The notes under the pieces are model-generated. The model did no database searches. It was given only the letters and a program-made list of their open reading frames with translations, and was not told the DNA's origin. Made by a program: the position numbers and the translations under genes. Positions 54,390 through 64,000 of a stretch of 64,000 nucleotides of DNA are shown here, piece by piece. Location: assembly GCA_963833985.1 (NCBI GenBank), contig CAWIAD010000002.1:3040001-3104000 (forward strand), read 5' to 3'. Each line of letters opens with the position of its first letter. The stretch's first letter is position 1. This stretch comes from an uncultured Planctomycetaceae bacterium. Lineage in GTDB: Bacteria > Planctomycetota > Planctomycetia > Isosphaerales > Isosphaeraceae.

Positions 54390-54838
54390 GCCTCTCAGCG
54401 AGATTCATCGCGTGAGTCGCGAGACAACAGAAGGCCGGTCCAAGGGTAATGTGGCCGATCGTGGTCGGAGAGAGCGCACCCCGTCCGGCAGGGCATCCCG
54501 CCGCGGCCCAACCAGGCCCACGCGCTCCCCCGTCCGCACGGGTCGCGTATGATGCAAGGGAGCGGGCATCCGCTGGCTGACGATGACGGTTCGCGGTCGG
54601 GCCCACGAATGAAGCCAAGCGGGATTGGCGGACCGTCCGCCGTGGTCCGGTAAGTTGGTCCCGCCAGGCCATCCAACGGTTACATGTAACAATACAATTA
54701 CAAACATCGTACCAGAGTCACCGTGAAGCGCTTCAGGGCCGCGTCCGTCCCGGCAGCGACGGTCACACCGAGATGGGCATGCTGTCCCCGGAACCCGTGC
54801 AGTCAGGCCCGCGCAGCAAAGCGGCCGCAAACATCGGC

Positions 54839-55243
54839 TCAGCCTGGTAGGAACGCCGAGGGCCGCACGCCGAAGTACCGGGCCAACACGATCACCTGCT
54901 CCTTCGTCAGTGAGCGAGTGCCGTTCATGATGGCCGAGATCGTCGACTGCGTGATTCCGACCCTGGCTTCGAGCATCTTCTGGGTCAGTCCGTTTGCCCG
55001 CATCAGTTCTTTCAGCACGTCGCCTTCGAAAACCTCGCGGGCCGGCTCGTGGACCGCCTCGTAACGCTCTACCAGGTCGGTCAGGGCGTCGAGATACAGC
55101 TCGGTCCCCTTATCCGAAGGGACCCGGAGCAGCTCATCCAGGATCGCCTGGGCTCGCTTCAAGTGCGCATCGTCTCGAATGCTGGCCAGGGGGAAACGTT
55201 CCACGAGCTTGAAGTAACTTGCCGGAGCCGTCTTTACCGCCAT
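54839..55243 (-). CDS. higA: HigA-family antitoxin (XRE HTH)
   Basis: LDALTDLVERYE and LKELMRANGLTQ...QSTISAIMNGTRSLT. Confidence 0.85.
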   Translation of the reverse strand: MAVKTAPASYFKLVERFPLASIRDDAHLKRAQAILDELLRVPSDKGTELYLDALTDLVERYEAVHEPAREVFEGDVLKELMRANGLTQKMLEARVGITQSTISAIMNGTRSLTKEQVIVLARYFGVRPSAFLPG

Positions 55244-55246
55244 GGA

Positions 55247-55591
55247 TTACTTGCCTTTCTTCCGCTTCGGCGGCGGCTCGTGACACCCGCAATCGTCGAT
55301 CCAGCGCCCTTTGTCGTATTGGGCATGGTCCATCACCTTGAGCACGTACACGATGCCCCTGGCATAGTTCACGCGCCCGATCAAACGGTACCGATTGTTG
55401 CCGACATCGAACACCACGCAGTTGCCCACCGTGCCTGCCGATTGGAATGCTTGCCTGAGCACTCCGAAGTTCGGCCAATCTGCGTTTTCGGTCACCTTGC
55501 GCCAGGTCGATATGTCACGCTCCGCAATCAGCGAATCAGCGCCGCGCGACTCCCAGAACTCGCGCAACCGGCGATTGGAAATAACCCTCAC
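55247..55591 (-). CDS. higB: HigB-family toxin
   Basis: VISNRRLREFW...VFDVGNNRYRLI...VMDHAQYDK; toxin precedes antitoxin. Confidence 0.88.
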   Translation of the reverse strand: MRVISNRRLREFWESRGADSLIAERDISTWRKVTENADWPNFGVLRQAFQSAGTVGNCVVFDVGNNRYRLIGRVNYARGIVYVLKVMDHAQYDKGRWIDDCGCHEPPPKRKKGK

Positions 55592-55644
55592 TTCCGTGAT
55601 CTCCTTCCGCACGCCTGGCCGGGCGCGGTAGGTCCTCCGTCGAC

Positions 55645-55696
55645 ATTATCGCTGAGTGCGATATTCCAGTCAACCCGAGTATCGCACTGTGCGATC
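55645..55696 (-). promoter_or_regulatory. higBA promoter with two operator palindromes
   Basis: Minus-strand TTGACT-17-GATAAT (55673-55645), overlapped or flanked by TATCGC-N5-GCGAT at 55647 and 55680. Confidence 0.65.
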
Positions 55697-55796
55697 GTCA
55701 TCCGCACGGAGAAATTTGAGAGACATTGGTGTCGGAGAAATTCGTGTCAGAGAGGAATGGCACTCGGATAGTGCAAACCGATCACCCCAACAACAC

Positions 55797-55878
55797 TCGG
55801 GCGGTTTTCTGACGGGTTGCAGGGAGTTTCTGAGTTTGGAAAGGGGGGCAGTCTGCGATCCGAGTGAAAACCGCTCCA
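55797..55878. mobile_element. MITE-like element, copy 3 (short, lacks the internal REP doublet)
   Basis: GGGCGGTTTTC...GTCTGCGATCCGAGTGAAAACCGCTCCA. Confidence 0.7.
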
Positions 55879-56017
55879 GGGGTTACGTTATCCGAGTGCC
55901 AGTCTGAACCGACACCGAATTCCGGACATGAACTAGAGTTTCGGTATGGGCGGTCCACCCCGATGCTGCATTGCGAAGGTGCGATGGACGGTGGCTCGTC
56001 CTTGGAGGAACTGCCCC

Positions 56018-57247
56018 ATGCCTCAGACGGATTTGCCATCTGGGCTAACGCGCCTTGGTTGCTTCTCATGGTGGGCTCGGGTCCTCGTGTTCTCCACCTC
56101 AGCCCTCATCTCGTCGGCAGCGGAGGGCAAGTCGTCTGAAACGACGTTCGCCGAGGTCATCGGCCAGCACTTCCAGGCCTGGGACCTGAATGGAGACGGT
56201 CGGCTCGAGGTCCACGAGATCGACCGCTTGACGTCCGAACCTTCGATCCGAGGCGACGCTGCCGCGGCGCTTGCAGCCATCAAGATTCACGAGCGAAAGA
56301 TTGGCGGGGCGGAGCACCGTAGGTTCGCCCCCGGACTTGACGAGCTCCAGGGCCGTATTGTGAGCGGGCCCCGTCCGATGGTCCCAGCAGGGCCGTTGAT
56401 CACCGGGCCGACCGTGCCATATTCCTATGAGCATGCGTTTCGCCGGCTAAGCGCCGAACTCGGCGCGGTGCCCTCCTTCCTCTTCGCTCACGACGTCCCT
56501 GACTTCGGTGTCCTGCGTCAGGGCTCGATCAAAGACTGCTTCTTCTTCAGCGTGATCGGAAGCATCGCGGCGCTTCGACCACGACGAATCGTCTCGATGA
56601 TCGAGCCCATGGCCGGCGGCGGTTTTGTCGTGCGATTCCCAGATGGGCCCCTGGTCCGTGTGCCACCCGTGACGCAGGCCGAGGCCCTCGTGAACAATAC
56701 GCTCTCCACGCTAGCAGATGGGCTCTGGCCCGTCGTCCTGGAGAAGGCCGTCGGTGAGATCGACCGCGAACATACCACACGCGACCGCCGGACCGCCGAG
56801 CCGACAGACTCTATCGCGCACGGCGGTTCGACCAAGAGGACGATGTGGCTCTTCACCGGTCACGCCTCATACGAGTTCATCCTGCGCCGTCCGCAATACG
56901 AAGCCCGAGACCTGGCCGAGATCCGCCGAATCCTACCGCAGACATTGGAAGCCGGCCGGCTGGCCACCGCATCGATGGGGCGGTACCCGGCCGGCCCGAA
57001 GAAGGTTCCGAAGCTGGGCTACAAGCACGGCTACGGCGTGATCGGCTTCGACCGTCGAACCGACGAGCTTGTCCTATGGAATCCGTGGGGTAACACATTC
57101 ACCCCGAACGGCCCTGAAGGCCTCGAACACGGCTTTATTACCAAACACGGCGTCTTCCGGGTCTCCCTGAAGACGTTCTACGAAAACTTCTCGACTCTCC
57201 ACGTCGAGTCAGCCGAGCTGCTGCCTTCCCGCTACAGAAAGATATGA
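56018..57247 (+). CDS. Calpain-family (C2) cysteine protease with N-terminal EF-hand
   Basis: QGSIKDCFF (Cys), HGYGV (His), WNPWG (Asn), WPVVLEKA; DLNGDGRLEVHE EF-hand; GGAGG RBS. Confidence 0.85.
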   Translation: MPQTDLPSGLTRLGCFSWWARVLVFSTSALISSAAEGKSSETTFAEVIGQHFQAWDLNGDGRLEVHEIDRLTSEPSIRGDAAAALAAIKIHERKIGGAEHRRFAPGLDELQGRIVSGPRPMVPAGPLITGPTVPYSYEHAFRRLSAELGAVPSFLFAHDVPDFGVLRQGSIKDCFFFSVIGSIAALRPRRIVSMIEPMAGGGFVVRFPDGPLVRVPPVTQAEALVNNTLSTLADGLWPVVLEKAVGEIDREHTTRDRRTAEPTDSIAHGGSTKRTMWLFTGHASYEFILRRPQYEARDLAEIRRILPQTLEAGRLATASMGRYPAGPKKVPKLGYKHGYGVIGFDRRTDELVLWNPWGNTFTPNGPEGLEHGFITKHGVFRVSLKTFYENFSTLHVESAELLPSRYRKI

Positions 57248-57295
57248 TGAAGGCTGCGCAAGAGCATAACGGCTGCATGGGGTCAGGGAAGGGAC

Positions 57296-57343
57296 AAGGG
57301 GACTGGAGTCGATTTCCCAGTCGAAATGACTCGATTCCCCTTT
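57296..57343. repeat. Short inverted repeat (empty TIR-like element)
   Basis: AAGGGGACTGGAGTCGATTTC...GAAATGACTCGATTCCCCTT. Confidence 0.5.
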
Positions 57344-57426
57344 GAGTTCTCCGAAGTCTGGTGCGGATTCTGGAGACGGCTGTCTGTGGCTTTTCCAGGA
57401 GGACTCATGCCCTCAAGTCCTCACGG

Positions 57427-57774
57427 TCAAGAGTAGGGGAGATACTCGACCCGGTTTTGCAGATCGTCCGGGTCGAGGGTTCTGGCAATCAACTCCAGGT
57501 CGCGAACGGCCTGGCCAATGGAAATACCGAACTGGTGCGCGTACACGACGCCAGAGAAAGCCGTCCCTGTTTGCAGACGCCCGTGCGCGATGACCAGCAG
57601 ATCTTGGTCCTGACTGAAAAGCACGCGGCCAGGTGACGTGGCTCGGTCCAGGAGAGGGTCGTCGTCAAGCCTTGCTGACCCATCCTCTTGAGCGGTAAGT
57701 ACGTCCACTCCCCGGTTCCGCAATCCCGCAGTGATCGCCGCAGGCACGTGATGATCCATGTACAGCGATACCAT
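57427..57774 (-). CDS. DUF5615 PIN-like toxin
   Basis: LYMDHHV...LRNRGVDVLT...DDPLL...RVLFSQDQD. Confidence 0.85.
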   Translation of the reverse strand: MVSLYMDHHVPAAITAGLRNRGVDVLTAQEDGSARLDDDPLLDRATSPGRVLFSQDQDLLVIAHGRLQTGTAFSGVVYAHQFGISIGQAVRDLELIARTLDPDDLQNRVEYLPYS

Positions 57775-58089
57775 CAGGAGGCAAGACCTTCGAGCCTTGA
57801 TCTTGGCTCGCAGAACGGATTCACTTTGATGTCCCCGGAGATGCTCGACCGCACGCAACTGTTCATCGATGGCTCGATCCATTTCCTCCTGATGGTCGTG
57901 ATAATAGGCCAGGCAACTGTGAATTTGTCCCAGCGTGAGGTGCGGGTGTTGGCGCTGAATCTCATCGGCATCCCAGTGGTGTGCCAGACGATCCAGGGCG
58001 ACCTCAAGAACTTTCGTTTGTGTCCCAATCAGCCAAACTTGACCGTCGGCGCGATTCTCGACGTGAGGGTAGTTGGTCGGAGTCGACAT
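57775..58089 (-). CDS. DUF433 antitoxin (reads in frame into the toxin in this sequence)
   Basis: IGTQTKVLEV...DEIQRQHPHLTLGQIHSCLAYYHDHQEEMD. Confidence 0.85.
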
Positions 58090-58441
58090 GGTTTTCAGCT
58101 CCTGTGGAGGACTCGCACGAGTCCCATGGATATCATACACAGGACGCAACGCCGGGGCATGGCTCGAATCGCAAAGGCCCCGTCTGTCGGCACAGGAGCG
58201 ACAGCGAGATCGGAGCGGCTCGGAACGGGATGCCGCCAGCAGGATTGACCGACCAAGAGTTGCGGGGACGGACACCAAACGCAATTCTTGACGGCATGCA
58301 ACTGGTCTCGGTCCATTTTTCGACGGGACGAGTTACGATCAACGCTGATCGCGCTGATCCAGGAACCCTTCCGTGATGATCCCGTCCGATCGCCATTGTA
58401 AGTGGACGGCCCCGAGTTGCCAGGTGCGCAGCAGGAGAGAG

Positions 58442-58917
58442 GAGAAATCAGTGTCGAGAAATCAGTGTCAGTTCATTTTTCTGAGAAATCAGTAAAAGAG
58501 AAATCAGCAGAGAGAGAAATCAGTGTCAGTTCATTTTTCTTGACGGAGCAGCAGAGAAATCAGCGTCGAGAAATCAGTGTCAGAGAGAAATCAGGAGAGA
58601 AATCAGAGAGAAATCAGTGTCAGTTCATTTTTCTTGACGGAGCAGCAGAGAAATCAGCGTCGAGAAATCAGTGTCAGAGAGAAATCAGAGAGAAATCAGG
58701 AGAGAAATCAGTGTCAGTTCATTTTTCTTGACAGAGAAATCAGTGTCAGTTCATTTTTTTTGACGGAGAAATCAGGGAGAAATCAGTGTCAGTTCATTTT
58801 TCTTGACGGAGAGAAATCAGTGTCAGTTCATTTTTCTTGACAGAGAAATCAGTGTCAGTTCATTTTTTTTGACGGAGAAATCAGGGAGAAATCAGTGTCA
58901 GTTCATTTTTCTTGACG
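58442..58917 (+). repeat. Left nested-truncation array (~22 units starting GAGAAATCAG; full unit GAGAAATCAGTGTCAGTTCATTTTTCTTGAC)
   Basis: Counted by hand: 22 units, 9 of which include the GTTCATTTTT core. Confidence 0.9.
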
Positions 58918-58941
58918 TAAGCCCGCATCTCGCCGTAACAT
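58912..58941 (+). promoter_or_regulatory. Putative RAYT promoter with the -35 supplied by the last repeat
   Basis: TTGACG-18-TAACAT; predicted +1 at about ATG 58949; no SD sequence. Confidence 0.45.
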
Positions 58942-58948
58942 GGGCATC

Positions 58949-59671
58949 ATGGGACGTCTTCCTCGCGCCACCGACGACGGTCTGGTTTACCACGCGATGA
59001 ACCGCGGGAACAACCGCGCCGACGTCTTCGTCGGCGATGGCGATCATGAGGCCTTCCTCGAGTCGCTCCGGGCTGCGAAGGACCGTTATCCCTTCGCACT
59101 ATTCGGTTATTGCCTGATGAGCAACCACTTCCACCTCCTGCTCAAGCCGAGCTCAGGGCAGTCGATCAGCCGGATCCTCCAGTCGCTCAGCGTGGCCCAC
59201 ACGTGGCGATACCACAAACGGCACCGCACCTCGGGGCACGTGTGGCAGGGCCGCTTCAAGAGCCCGGTGATCCAGGACGATGACCACCTGCTGGTCGTGC
59301 TACAGTACATCGAGGCCAACCCTGTCCGCGCCGGTATGGTCGCCGACCCGAGGGCCTACCGGTGGTCGAGCTATGGCCAGCACGGACTGGGACTGGTTGA
59401 CAAGCTTTTGGACGGTTTCCCCGAGTGGGAGCATCTCGGCCCGTCCGAGGTGGAGCGTAGGCGGCGGTGGCGGGCAAAGCTGCTGTCGGCGCAGAGGCAG
59501 GACGAACTGACAGCGGTACGCGACTCGTTGCGAACCGGACGCCCGCTGGGCTCTCCCGCCTGGGTCGAGGGAGTCGCGACTCGATTGGGCATTAACCTGA
59601 CCCCGCGCCCGCGGGGCCGGCCTCGAAAGGAGGAATCGGCATCGGCCGGAAGTGCCCGAAAAATGAACTGA
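58949..59671 (+). CDS. REP-associated tyrosine transposase (RAYT/TnpA Y1 HUH endonuclease), intact
   Basis: YHAMNRGNNR, YCLMSNHFHLL (HUH), GHVWQGRFKS, YIEANPVRAG (catalytic Tyr), YRWSSY, RPRGRPRK tail; the stop lies in the first right-hand repeat. Confidence 0.93.
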   Translation: MGRLPRATDDGLVYHAMNRGNNRADVFVGDGDHEAFLESLRAAKDRYPFALFGYCLMSNHFHLLLKPSSGQSISRILQSLSVAHTWRYHKRHRTSGHVWQGRFKSPVIQDDDHLLVVLQYIEANPVRAGMVADPRAYRWSSYGQHGLGLVDKLLDGFPEWEHLGPSEVERRRRWRAKLLSAQRQDELTAVRDSLRTGRPLGSPAWVEGVATRLGINLTPRPRGRPRKEESASAGSARKMN

Positions 59672-60092
59672 CACCGATTATCACGAAAAATGAACTGACA
59701 CCGATTATCTCCCGAAAAATGAACTGACACGCGATTATCAGCCCGAGCAGGACGAATGAAGCGTAGGACTCAACCGGACTCCGCTGGCTCTCCTGGCACT
59801 CGATTGCATCTCTTGACCCCGCGCGCGGGGCCGGCCTCGAAAGGAGCAATCGGCATCGGCCAATGAACTGACACCGATTATCACGAAAATGAACTGACAC
59901 CGATTATCTCCCGAAAAATGAACTGACACCGATTATCTCCTGACACCGATTATCTTCGCGAAAGGAGCAATGGCATCGGCCAGAAGTGCCCGAAAAATGA
60001 ACTGACACCGATTATCCCCCGAAAAATGAACTGACACCACGATTATCCCCGAAAAATGAACTGACACCGATTATCTCGACACCGATTATCTC
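59655..60092 (-). repeat. Right nested-truncation array (~11 units ending GATTATC), inverted relative to the left array
   Basis: GAAAAATGAACTGACACCGATTATC and 5'-truncated versions; two units extend into copies of the RAYT 3' end. Confidence 0.9.
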
Positions 60093-60196
60093 GCGGAGGA
60101 CGAGTCAGGCGGTGGAACCCTCTAGCAGCCGTGTCTGGCGGGGTTCTCAAGACGATTGATTGCGTGCAATCGGGACTTTGGTCCCAAACGTTCAGC

Positions 60197-60955
60197 TTAC
60201 GAGGCGATCTTGAACCGCTCTGCGAGCAAGTCGAACTCGTTCTCTCCCTGGATTGCCCTCCTCTTGGGAAACCGGATCGGCAGGCTTTCGAGATTCCATA
60301 TCTGGGTCACAATCTCATCCCATGGCAGCGACCCACGCGGCATGGTCGATCGCTGGTCGTTGGGGTCAACGGGTTTGACCCTTAGCACCTGGATGATCAG
60401 AGTGCCGAAGCCGATCGTCATCGCGTACGCGCGGTCGCCTGCCCCTTCTCCCCTCATCTCCAACAGCCTGGCGACGACAAAAGGTCCAGGCGATCCTTCC
60501 CATCGACATACCCACACATGCGTTTGGATAGGAATTGGACGATTCTCATACGAATAGAAGACCGTCCGCTCCTGATCGGTGAACCGCCAGACACCTGGGG
60601 GATTTCTCGTCTCGGAACACATCGCGGTCATCACAGCCCAAGAGGTCAGCAGCTTGCATTCGCAAGCATCGAAAGAGACAGACGAATTCGATAGAAGGGA
60701 CTTGATGAGCGGCTTCGCGCCTTCCTGCAAGCGGCTCATCCATCCAACATTGCAATATTGACAGACGGATCTTACGGTCAGCCTCAGATCAGTGACCCTC
60801 GTGCATAAAACGGGCGAGTTCATGTCTCCCTGGTATTCGAGCGTCCCGTGCCCCTTGAACTCCTTTCGCAGCCAATTAGGGAACACGTGTTCCTCCGAGC
60901 CAGCCTCTTTGCCACAGAAGATGCACTTCTCGGTCGTCGAGTATTTCTTGCTCAT
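60197..60955 (-). CDS. HNH-like endonuclease domain protein
   Basis: CIFCG...SEEHVFPNWL...VCQYCNVGWMS zinc-binding HNH pattern; visibly more AT-rich than the flanks. Confidence 0.75.
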   Translation of the reverse strand: MSKKYSTTEKCIFCGKEAGSEEHVFPNWLRKEFKGHGTLEYQGDMNSPVLCTRVTDLRLTVRSVCQYCNVGWMSRLQEGAKPLIKSLLSNSSVSFDACECKLLTSWAVMTAMCSETRNPPGVWRFTDQERTVFYSYENRPIPIQTHVWVCRWEGSPGPFVVARLLEMRGEGAGDRAYAMTIGFGTLIIQVLRVKPVDPNDQRSTMPRGSLPWDEIVTQIWNLESLPIRFPKRRAIQGENEFDLLAERFKIAS

Positions 60956-61407
60956 CACGTGACCTTGCGAACAAGCTGATCCGTCGATTGAGATTGATTG
61001 TGTGCTGGAACGTGCCGCGAGTGGAATACTTCACCCGCATCTTGAAGCAGCCGAGGTCGTGGCGCGGGAGGGGGATGCGGTCGACTGGAATACAGGGCAG
61101 GCGGCTCCGCTCGATACGCAAGTCCTAACAACTTACGGGAGCGGCATCAAGCGAGGAGGCAGAACTGCCCAACAGGTGAAGTCCGAATCGCGAAACGACG
61201 CTCGTAGGCGGGAAGCGTGGCAAGTCAGCTAAGGAATGCGATCGCGTGATGTTCGTCGCTGACAGAATTTTCATTTATTTTGAAATGTCTGAATCGCCAG
61301 AATCTTCTTGAATCCATCCACGCAGATAGTTGGAATGAATGAACGCTGGTCCAGAGCTAAGTTTGCAGCTCGTAGACTAACTGTAGGACAGTAAGAGGGG
61401 CTTCTGG

Positions 61408-61614
61408 ATGTACCGGCATTACATGCAGAGATCCATAGTTGAATTGGAGGCGATCTATCGAGGATCGTTATCTGACGAGGGAACCCTACGCCAGTTGCTT
61501 TTAGAGCTTAATCACCGCAATACCAGACGAGCAATGGTTTTACTGGATTTGGTCACCAGCAGGCTGAGTGAGATCGCGTCTGATAAGATGCTCGCCAGGA
61601 ACCCATGTCCGTGA
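61408..61614 (+). CDS. Small hypothetical protein or gene fragment
   Basis: RHYMQRSIVELE...LLLELNHRNTRRA; AT-rich; possibly truncated before the third array. Confidence 0.4.
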   Translation: MYRHYMQRSIVELEAIYRGSLSDEGTLRQLLLELNHRNTRRAMVLLDLVTSRLSEIASDKMLARNPCP

Positions 61615-61768
61615 ACAGGTCGATTGTGGGAAGATTGCCTGACGCGAGAGTAATCGAGTGCTCTCTTCCGAGGAAATCGCAGTCAGGCAGGACTTTACGT
61701 TCGACCTCGAAAAGCGCTTCAAGAGAGCTTTCCCTGCCGACGTGCGTAGCCTTGCCAGCCCCAGCCCA

Positions 61769-61880
61769 GGAATGCTTCGGTGTCAGTTCATTTTTCTGGC
61801 GCAGGAATGCTTCGGTGTCGGAATGCTTCGGTGTCAGTTCATTTTTCTGGCGGAATGCTTCGGTGTCAGATCATTTTTCC
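61769..61880 (+). repeat. Third nested-truncation array (4 units starting GGAATGCTTCGGTGTC)
   Basis: Same GGTGTCAGTTCATTTTTC core; the last unit overlaps the comEC stop. Confidence 0.85.
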
Positions 61881-64000
61881 CGAGGCAGGAGTTGTGGTCC
61901 AGTTTGATGCGGGTGATCCAGGAACCCCTCCGTGATGATCTGATCCGAACGCCACTTGAAGTGCACGGCCCCGCGCTGCCAGGTCCGCAGGAGTGGAATC
62001 CCGCTTCGCTCAAGGGGCATGAGGGCGTCGCTCGTCCCGGGGGCGGGCATCCTCTGGCTAACCACAACGGCTCGGGGTTTGGCCCAGGAGTAGAGCCAGG
62101 GAGGATTGGCGGACCGTCCGCCATGGTGGGGGGAGAGCATCAGGTCGATGGGCTCGGGCTGAGCCTGGGCGACCAGCTCGACGAGGCCGAGCTGGTCCAG
62201 GTCGCCGGTGAGCAGGAGGTGGTGGCCAAGGTGCTCGACGTCGAGGACCAGGCTGCGGGCGTTGTCGGGCGTTTCCGGGTGCCAGCCCCGAGGCGGATGG
62301 AGCACCGTGAAATGAACGGTGGCCTGGGTCCACTGCCGCGGCGCGGCAATGGTGCGGATCGGAATGCGCCGGGCCCGGAACTGATCCAGCAGCAAGGTCA
62401 CGCCTGGGTTTTCCTCGGTCTCGGTCACGAAGCCAGCCGGGAGGACCAGCTCGCCGACCTGGAAGCGGTCCAGCAGGTCGGGAATCCCGTTGTAGTGGTC
62501 CTGGTCGGCGTGGCTGAGGTAGATGGCGTCGATCCGAGCGATCCCGCGTGACCAGAGCGCCGGGGCGATGATCCGCCGCCCCACGCGCGGGTCGCCCATG
62601 CGCCCGCAGTCATAGAGCAGGGTCCGGCCGTCGGGCAGATGCAGCACGACCGCCAGACCGTGACCGATGGCCAGCAGATCGCCTTCGAGCGTTCCGCCCG
62701 TTCGAGCCGGTGAACCGAGCAGCCAACCGGGAAACGTGCAGGCCGGCACGGCCAGCCAGAGGAGGAACCGCCAGAATCGCCAGCGCGGAATGAGGCCCTC
62801 CAGTGCGCACGCGGCGCTGGCGACCGTCGCCAGCAGGAGCAGCAGGTAGAAGACCGCGACGGTGACCCAGGTCGGGCCGGGCACGAAGACGTATCCCCAC
62901 GGCTGGGAGGCACCCCAGCGGACGATCTGCTCCGAGAGCCGCAGCAGCAGATCGGCGGCATGCACCGGCACGCTGGCCAGCGGGCTCCAGATCGCGCCCA
63001 CGACCATGCCCCCGGCCCCCAGCAGCAGGGCCAGCGAGGTGAACGGGATGAGCGGGATGTTCAGCAGGACGCCGATCGGTGAGACGAGATGGAACCGCAG
63101 CGCGACCAGCGGCAACGCGGCCAGCCAGACGACCGCGGAGGTGAGAAGGCCCCTGCCCAGCCAGGACAGGGCCCAGTCCAGACGCCTTCGCCAGCGCGGC
63201 TGATACGTACGCTTGAGCGCTTCGATGGCGTCAGACGGACGTTTGAGCATGGTCTTGACCGTGGAGACGATCTCCCCGAGCAATCCCCGGGCCATGGGGA
63301 CCAGCCAGAAGAGCGCGGCGATGGCCAGGAAGGAAAGCTGGCAGCCAACGTCGAACAGGAAGAACGGGTCCCATGCCAGGGTGAGCAGGGCGGCCAGTGC
63401 CAGGGTGTTGGCCGGCGCGAGGACCGTTCGACAATCGCGGCCAGGCAGAAGGTGAAAGTCATGACGGCGGAACGCACCACCGAGGGAGCCAGGCCAACCA
63501 GGAGGGCGTAGCCCACGGTGCCGGCAGCCACGCCGCCGTAAACCAGCCGGCGCGGCAGGCCCAGCAGGCGCAAAAGCAGGCCGAGTGCGACGGCCAGGAT
63601 CTGGATTTGAAGGCCCGAAATCGCCAGCAGGTGGGTGGTGCCGGTGCGGGCGAAGGCGTCGTTGGTCTCCGGATCGATGTCCTCGCGCTGGCCGAGGATC
63701 AGGGCTGAGGCCAGAGGCGCGGTACGTTCGTCGAGCGGAGCGACGAGACGGTCGCGGCAGGCGGCCCGCAGGTCACCCAGCCAGCGGTGCAGGGGCCACG
63801 CCTGGCCGTCGGGATTGACCGCAATTCCCGAGCCCTGGTCGACCGTGATGCGCAGGCGAATCCCCCGCGCCCGCAGGTACGCGCGGTAATCAAACTCGCC
63901 GGGGTTGAGCGGTCCGGCGACCCTGGAGAGCTGACCGGCCAGCTCGACGGGCTGGCCCGCGTGCAGGTCGCTCCGGTCGGCCGCGACGGTCACAAGAACG
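61871..64000 (-). CDS. comEC: ComEC/Rec2 competence protein (5' part outside window; frameshift near 63418)
   Basis: LNPGEFDY, GTTHLLAISGLQ, PSVVRSAVM, QLSFLA; MBL domain SHADQDHYNG, LLTGD, PHHGG. Confidence 0.9.

Follow-up and report, generated by a model that had tools for sequence, protein, structure and literature searches.

The question raised by this locus is what makes short repeats that all begin at the same base and end at different ones. In the analysed stretch of planctomycete DNA (64,000 nt, hereafter the window), one transposase gene lies between two arrays of such repeats. An original prediction, made from the letters alone, proposed that an intact RAYT/HUH transposase had produced them, each unit recording one abortive event of nicking, extension and rejoining.

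We found that the left array contains 22 starts of GAGAAATCAG, all with the same 10 letters, between 58442 and 58886 on the plus strand. Unit parsing gave 21 partial left-end copies of 11-40 nt (58442-58885), and unit 22 is the full left end (58886-58941), with an outer segment of 9 nt (58886-58894) and a core at 58895-58911. Of the 27 occurrences of GAGAAATCAG in the 10.2-Mb genome, 22 fall in this array, so it did not arise by chance. On the minus strand, the right array has 11 starts of GATAATC, with the same 7 letters, from 60090 to 59682. Ten partial right-end copies of 15-143 nt (59683-60090) precede the full right terminal inverted repeat, or TIR (59658-59682). Every unit repeats the beginning of the innermost full end, and many units close with a few letters that do not match it. 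The core GTGTCAGTTCATTTTTC is present on both sides and oriented into the gene, and the fixed start lies 9 nt outside it on the left and 8 nt outside it on the right. The two 22-nt inverted arms of the element are 95% complementary. In addition, the left array contains exact block repeats of 84 nt and 109 nt. The predicted left array (22 units, a common start, ends at 11-40 nt) and the shared inward-pointing core agreed with our parsing. For the right array, the 11 units, the fixed outer end and the variable inner ends were all recovered, whereas units R4 and R8 proved longer than the prediction had implied.

Those two units deserve closer description. R4 (59955-60016, minus strand) is a 62-nt copy with two alleles absent from the present gene end. 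R8 (59740-59882, minus strand, 143 nt) corresponds to about 190 nt at the 3' end of the gene, copied with many deletions. It aligns in 19 blocks; most of the long units listed elsewhere are gap-free. At ten informative sites, R8 matches the present gene eight times and the paralogue once. The two alleles of R4 and one allele of R8 agree with the other two right ends of the genome and not with the present gene; thus, these units are older copies of the local end. Several inner units of the right array (R3, R4, R7, R8 and R9) carry indels, and these letters could be consensus errors. R8 itself may reflect consensus error or rare error-prone copying; that its deletions alone are artefactual is a substantial possibility, with the odds leaning somewhat against it.

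The transposase gene (58940-59671, plus strand) is an uninterrupted open reading frame of 243 codons. We assigned it to the TIRYT-type Y1 HUH transposases from its Pfam match (PF01797, E = 6e-16), its NCBIfam match (NF047646, at the cut-off with 80.9 versus 80 bits), an alignment of homologues and a predicted model. The conserved start is probably M4, at 58949. The HUH histidines H63 and H65 and the catalytic Y123 are invariant among 17 aligned homologues, and the distance from H65 to Y123 is 58 aa (58-60 aa among the homologues). The claim of an intact RAYT/HUH enzyme was therefore borne out. The predicted model (mean pLDDT 86.6) has four helices at residues 161-216 in a C-terminal extension, and its best fold match is TnpA-REP (PDB 4ER8, E = 5e-8, 18% identity). 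A single-sequence search of PDB with the protein gave no match; a profile search led to the same structure. The protein ends in an AT-hook-like tail, RPRGRPRK (residues 223-230), with an invariant G-R-P. In the C-terminal extension, no Pfam HTH domain was matched in any of the 17 members, and AT_hook was matched only at E = 1.2, in two of them. Judging from its sequence, the tail might bind the T-tract of the TIR.

The core of the right TIR includes the stop codon (59669-59671), and the left core lies directly before a predicted -35 box (TTGACG, 58912-58917) and a predicted -10 box (TAACAT, 58936-58941), both on the plus strand within the full left end. The same pattern occurred in 17 of 50 homologous left ends and in none of 50 right ends. 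We infer that the pair is a promoter.

Homology between copies of the element spans approximately 58885 to 59682 and fades 9-10 nt outside the core, which gives an element of about 800 bp. This genome has a second copy, 94% identical, plus fragments; genome G009 has several copies in different surroundings. A match was found at 211 loci, many of them truncated, cut by contig ends or distant, and paired TIRs were present at 52 of 192 de-duplicated loci. No empty target site was found for 50 paired elements among the genomes examined, so the true ends and the mobility of the element as a unit are deduced from the limits of homology. The right flank gave only weak family matches, in two of 120 genomes. 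Five end segments folded no better than shuffled sequences (z from -1.47 to 1.15) and the core matched 53 times genome-wide in only 10 clusters; therefore, the ends are not REPs. Neither a GTAG tag at the cores nor an Rfam match across 57000-62500 was found. The prediction had set the units apart from REPs and from CRISPR, and the lack of hairpin and GTAG and the nested prefixes support it on both counts. A CRISPR array can be dismissed because the units repeat the beginning of the element end to varying lengths, in a region with no Rfam match.

We surveyed whether related elements carry similar arrays, as the prediction expected, and they do. Among 50 paired elements, 22 had at least two copies at one end and 15 had at least three, and the other 28 had no second copy at either end. 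Comparatively, a control 8-mer recurred in 26 of 1620 trials. Among the 35 ends with at least three copies, the start lay 7-11 nt outside the core in 33, 7-10 nt in 30 (the predicted range) and 8-10 nt in 26, while the outer 7-mers were of 27 different kinds. Seven of these 35 ends come from this genome. Five ends were left out by eye as false anchors, and two of them had three copies (the left ends of L164 and L197). As the first anchor forces a distance of at least 6 nt, start distances were recounted with a core-only anchor: of 125 copies, 98 started at 7-11 nt, nine at 5 nt or less and 18 at 12 nt or more. Each array carries the outer sequence of its own end, and in this genome the outer sequences of the paralogue (94% identical) and of another, third fragment are different. 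Thus, the arrays form in place.

The arrays are not confined to this assembly, as had been anticipated. Two of four named isolate plasmids have them (NZ_CP086112.1 and NZ_CP116719.1) and the other two do not; they also occur in genomes G004 and G054. In Singulisphaera acidiphila DSM 18658, four ends were seen and all were single, with no stutter, which speaks against the arrays being general. A de novo scan of this genome found 47 irregular arrays. For 17 of them a Y1-like gene is no more than 1 kb away, whereas 2000 null draws gave a mean of 0.39 and a maximum of 4; of the 26 Y1-like loci of this genome, 15 have an array. Among the 30 arrays not within 1 kb of a Y1 match are two very long and regular ones, as well as solitary TIRs and other repeats. 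Arrays with different cores were seen beside other Y1 families of this genome (G000), for example at C2:98554, C2:2584844, C2:5033165, C2:6223793 and C1:2927204.

Several individual arrays were more complicated. A left-end-only fragment (G000:C2:4723685-4724400) has nine copies of up to 189 nt; codons 1-26 lie within them, and so does the joint with foreign DNA. In the right array of the paralogue (G000:C2:2427958-2428423), one unit bears a fold-back tail of scrambled gene-end pieces, and this unit was itself copied again in shortened form. At the right end of L088, two fixed starts in one unit are separated by a stretch of about 70 nt with no relation to the element. At unrelated loci (L269, L271, L272, L276, L283, L284 and L079), a few identical outer sequences recur directly outside the TIR cores; these are possibly the ends of group II introns homing at the cores.

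We then compared the junctions between units. Excluding the right end of L155, there were 172 unique junctions at 34 ends: 50 blunt, 88 with 1-6 extra letters and 34 with longer tails, so that 122 of 172 have a non-matching tail. Some of the longer tails are mutated units or indel-bearing copies. Purines make up 74% of the letters in tails of 1-6 nt, compared with 53% for templated continuation, and the purine lean lies on the strand that would carry a free 3'-OH. Part of this bias may come from a wobbling start inside purine-rich outer DNA. Microhomology of at least 1 nt was found at 24 of the 50 blunt junctions (about 12 expected) and was lacking at 26. The inner ends fall at 45 different positions, reaching 179 nt into the element, and cluster near core positions 0-2, 5-7 and 15-23.

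HUH chemistry yields a 5'-phosphotyrosine and a free 3'-OH, according to the accessible text of PMC8266576. By analogy with it, we consider that the end arrays arose from an HUH nick about 8-9 nt outside the core, a short extension by host polymerase and resealing, with a probability of roughly 0.6. The enzyme would nick the inward-reading strand, the host polymerase would add a short stretch of the element end to the free 3' end, and the enzyme would then join the 5' end that it holds to this newly made 3' end. Every such event would add a single partial copy immediately beyond the end that was nicked. A copy that keeps the core could be nicked again, which would give block repeats, and solitary TIRs would be processed in trans. 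The cut position would be set by the distance from the core and not by the letters at the cut site. AAV Rep, which nicks beside its binding site, would then work in a like way. The fixed start and the variable, tailed far end favour the joining of a held 5' end to an extended 3' end. The microhomology excess and the possible wobble of the start somewhat weaken this reading. Slippage equally predicts microhomology at blunt junctions, so that feature counts against nicking and resealing. Another point against it is that ends without folding leave the supply of single-stranded substrate outside its account. The 28 paired elements with no second copy, the single ends of S. acidiphila, the two named plasmids with no arrays and the 30 arrays away from Y1 matches count against it as well. 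The proposed record of nick, extension and rejoining is consistent with the recurrence of the arrays, their fixed start, the purine-leaning tails, the link to Y1 genes and the intact catalytic residues, while the nick, its strand and the reseal themselves are proposed by analogy. The telomere likeness suggested for the arrays is only a loose one, with no sign of an end-protecting role or an RNA template. We take the arrays for traces left by aborted initiation of the rolling-circle type and do not regard them as a product of selection.

An alternative that leaves less to the enzyme is that the transposase only nicks; a replication fork would convert the nick into a one-ended break, the 3' end of the flank would copy a little of the sister DNA, and host enzymes would join it to the fixed end. 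The product would have the same fixed start and variable, tailed end, and such repair would account for jumbled tails such as the fold-back unit of the paralogue and the foreign insert of L088. Ku and a LigD polymerase domain are encoded in this genome. However, of 121 family genomes just 13 gave a Ku match, and six that bear arrays (G004, G013, G028, G118, G031 and G054, each at least 98% complete) gave none; in G028, G118 and G054 no LigD polymerase domain was found either. The arrays could be older than the loss of Ku, or the joining could be independent of Ku; on balance, we regard this explanation as unlikely. It might also be that nothing is nicked: bound protein or the T-tract would stall replication, the nascent strand would slip back, and unequal exchange would expand the array. 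The mild microhomology excess at blunt junctions and the clustering of inner ends at few positions point in this direction, and exact block repeats of 84 and 109 nt are typical of slippage in an array that already exists. Slipping back requires microhomology at the restart, which 26 of 50 blunt junctions lack entirely; in addition, it gives no distance-fixed start across 27 outer sequences, and extra letters occur at 122 of 172 junctions. Slippage may expand existing arrays, but we find it distinctly improbable as their origin.

Nor do the arrays look like products of assembly, although R8 and its neighbours are indel-rich and both comEC and ligD are split by frameshifts in this assembly. A 105-nt unitig from sequencing run X1 is identical to 58703-58807 in the left array; this run is a low-share DNA run of depth about 2 that covers six of 30 bins and is possibly the source sample. 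The stutters on the two named isolate plasmids and in contigs L104 and L155, whose names suggest short-read assemblers, argue in the same way, as do the paralogue-type alleles of R4. An artefact is accordingly the least credible origin of the arrays as a whole. It would be nearly as surprising if the arrays were retained for a function, for instance to titrate the transposase or to tune the promoter with which the left TIR overlaps. The left TIR does abut the conserved -35/-10 pair, and the long left units carry a repeat of the -35 box. Nevertheless, copy number and content vary by locus, most ends have no array, and right ends and solitary ends stutter alike.

If nicking and resealing is the true course, an enzyme of the Y1 type acts on inverted ends that lack hairpins, and its activity stays written in the sequence. 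The arrays would then predict which strand is cut, where (here 8-9 nt outside the core) and by what ruler-like rule.

The surroundings of the element raise a separate problem. Around it lies a stack of cassettes with comEC 3' ends (54430-62130 of the window), and comparable stacks with varied cargo were found at G010:C3:24500-63000 and G002:C29:213800-225600. Several comEC fragments were present in eight of 13 genus genomes, with up to 12 in one genome. Fragment A (58305-58435, minus strand) is cut at the left end of the element, carries a degenerate TIR-like core (58305-58321) at its own end, and is the only comEC fragment that directly abuts a TIR start; a 6-nt purine spacer (58436-58441, plus strand) separates it from the first unit and forms the outer left junction. 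Genome G002 has the same left cassette with the comEC fragment uncut, and homology stops at 58435. The comEC piece missing at the left junction is not on the right flank, and six purines precede unit 1. The stop of homology and the missing part imply that the left junction is a deletion or a one-ended joint, not a clean insertion. In G009, two close copies of the element have their left ends facing comEC fragments.

The full comEC ends at 61871, within a solitary TIR (61852-61879) that has its own stutter. This array C (61769-61879, plus strand) lies over the comEC stop codon, with three partial copies starting 11 nt outside the core and no transposase beside it. Neither the stuttering of solitary TIRs nor the cassette stack around the element had featured in the prediction. 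The partial copies of array C differ from its present inner sequence, which suggests, from the letters of the copies, that the comEC end has been exchanged since the copies arose. Between the element and array C, outside the element, a neighbouring gene of 253 aa (60197-60958, minus strand) is weakly HNH-like: it gave no Pfam, NCBIfam or PADLOC match, and its ESM Atlas neighbour, named HNH endonuclease, was matched with a low recognition score. Frameshifts split comEC (window 61871-63999) and ligD (G000:C2:1167143-1167902), and they are either real or sequencing errors. A cassette with DUF433 and DUF5615 (window 57352-58435) is 90% identical in G002 and G006 and 86-90% identical in three other genera; such identity across genera means that it moves between lineages. 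At 55790-55880 of the window there is a palindrome-like repeat with dozens of copies genome-wide, flanked by a HigB-type toxin-antitoxin pair on one side and a calpain-like gene on the other.

Tandem att-flanked islands stack at the 3' end of a gene. The comEC stack is like them in that comEC 3' ends were replaced repeatedly, in most cases at a single, sharply defined site preceded by a conserved arm. Most fragments begin at this att-like site, at the HHGG codons, which is distinct from the TIR; fragment A0 (54430-54694, left limit approximate, minus strand) is an example. A second start site, at SHADQDH codons, was seen at three loci. The DNA upstream was replaced at 21 of 33 HHGG sites, and 16 of these 21 have in common an arm motif of 9 nt, located 32-42 nt upstream. 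Comparable matches to the arm-plus-HHGG pattern, of comEC type, were present in only four genus genomes, and other matches look like chance. No tyrosine or serine integrase was found among 87 ATG-started ORFs of at least 170 aa at 10 of 20 fetched loci, where one IS110 and several DDE transposases were found; a search from the arm flanks traced none either. Unlike the islands, 19 of 41 comEC ends finish in a TIR core (at least 12 of 17 letters; null 7 of 3000). Several comEC ends (L061-L078) have a second conserved stretch about 60 nt further out, with a GGGGACA-type core. Circles made by the TIRYT were rejected as the source of most comEC duplicates, since these start at HHGG behind a non-TIR arm. 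It is possible that the transposase helps to build the stack. A broader proposal is that TIRYTs are rolling-circle-like initiators on inverted double-stranded ends, which would cut a set distance from the core and write partial copies of the end into the chromosome; in this genus, a core fixed at the comEC stop would let the enzyme join cargo behind comEC and so help to build the cassette array with no local integrase. We hold this to be improbable as a whole. The stack remains a separate lead, namely a repeated 3'-end replacement in a DNA-uptake gene with no integrase in the 87 ORFs.

By the published text descriptions, the element fits TIRtron/TIRYT, that is, a RAYT-like tyrosine transposase gene between terminal inverted repeats with no REPs (Di Nocera, De Gregorio and Rocco 2013, PMC3733652, main text). 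As this type is already named, calling the locus an undescribed system was too strong; what our literature search did not find is the end-stutter itself. That search, which covered listings and openly accessible text, found no published account of fixed-start, variably truncated end arrays. Like a TIRtron, the present element has a Y1 transposase with HUH and a catalytic tyrosine, flanked by inverted repeats that are not REPs, and its core sits where the relatives have GGGGWSA in the text available. Against GGGGWSAS, the motif of most TIRtron TIRs, the present TIRs agree at seven of eight letters on the right and six of eight on the left; relatives show GGGGTCAG or GGGGACAT there. The present core has T at the third position. 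The main text of PMC3733652 also places TIR copies away from the gene and mentions TIR dimers and clusters, and that text has no mention of fixed-start truncated stacks, a cut site or a mechanism.

The transposase probably belongs to TnpA-Y1 subclass 2.1, which the accessible part of Quentin et al. (2018, PMC6006769) equates with TIRYT and ranks as the second largest TnpA-Y1 subclass, in 14.9% of strains. It shares with that subclass, as outlined there, the HUH-Tyr spacing (58-67 aa; 58-60 aa here), the C-terminal extension and the lack of REP-like hairpins. The Pfam HTH matches reported in the same account were not found in our 17 family members, and arrays are not mentioned in the parts available. 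Subclass 2.3, described there with a spacing of about 110 aa and insertion domains, was ruled out by our 58-60 aa. No biochemistry for subclass 2.1 was reported in the portions covered of PMC3733652, PMC6006769, PMC5581495 and PMC8266576. RAYT group 1, in the text consulted of Bertels et al. (2017, PMC5581495), is the RAYT group most like insertion sequences, with duplicates within genomes, some of them on plasmids, and is flanked by modestly repeated 16-mers; it resembles our element by description only, and end arrays are not described in that text. The name STIR-RAYT was dropped, as it was found neither in that text nor in the literature search.

A REPtron has the same Y1 fold and presumably the same cleavage and strand-transfer chemistry (Corneloup et al. 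2021, PMC8266576, in part; PDB 4ER8). It has GTAG-tagged hairpins in hundreds of copies by that account, whereas here there is no hairpin, the genome has 10 core clusters, and the gene too has been duplicated. The single immobile gene of REPtrons (RAYT groups 2 and 3) is at odds with two full gene copies plus fragments here and several copies in G009, and GTAG-tagged REP hairpins beside the gene were not seen. IS200/IS605, with a short TnpA, subterminal hairpins and dissimilar ends, was ruled out by the 243 aa, the inverted ends and the lack of a hairpin. If our main reading holds, the element works like rolling-circle HUH elements, namely IS91/ISCR, Helitrons and Replitrons, which share a set nick, 3'-OH extension, a variable far end and no target-site duplication (PMC10288648, accessible text). 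The junction pattern fits nick-primed strand displacement from a fixed origin, as in IS91/ISCR. In that text, these elements use enzymes of the Rep family, and their ends are either direct repeats or a distinct origin and terminator; in contrast, the present enzyme is a Y1_Tnp, its ends are inverted, and both of them stutter.
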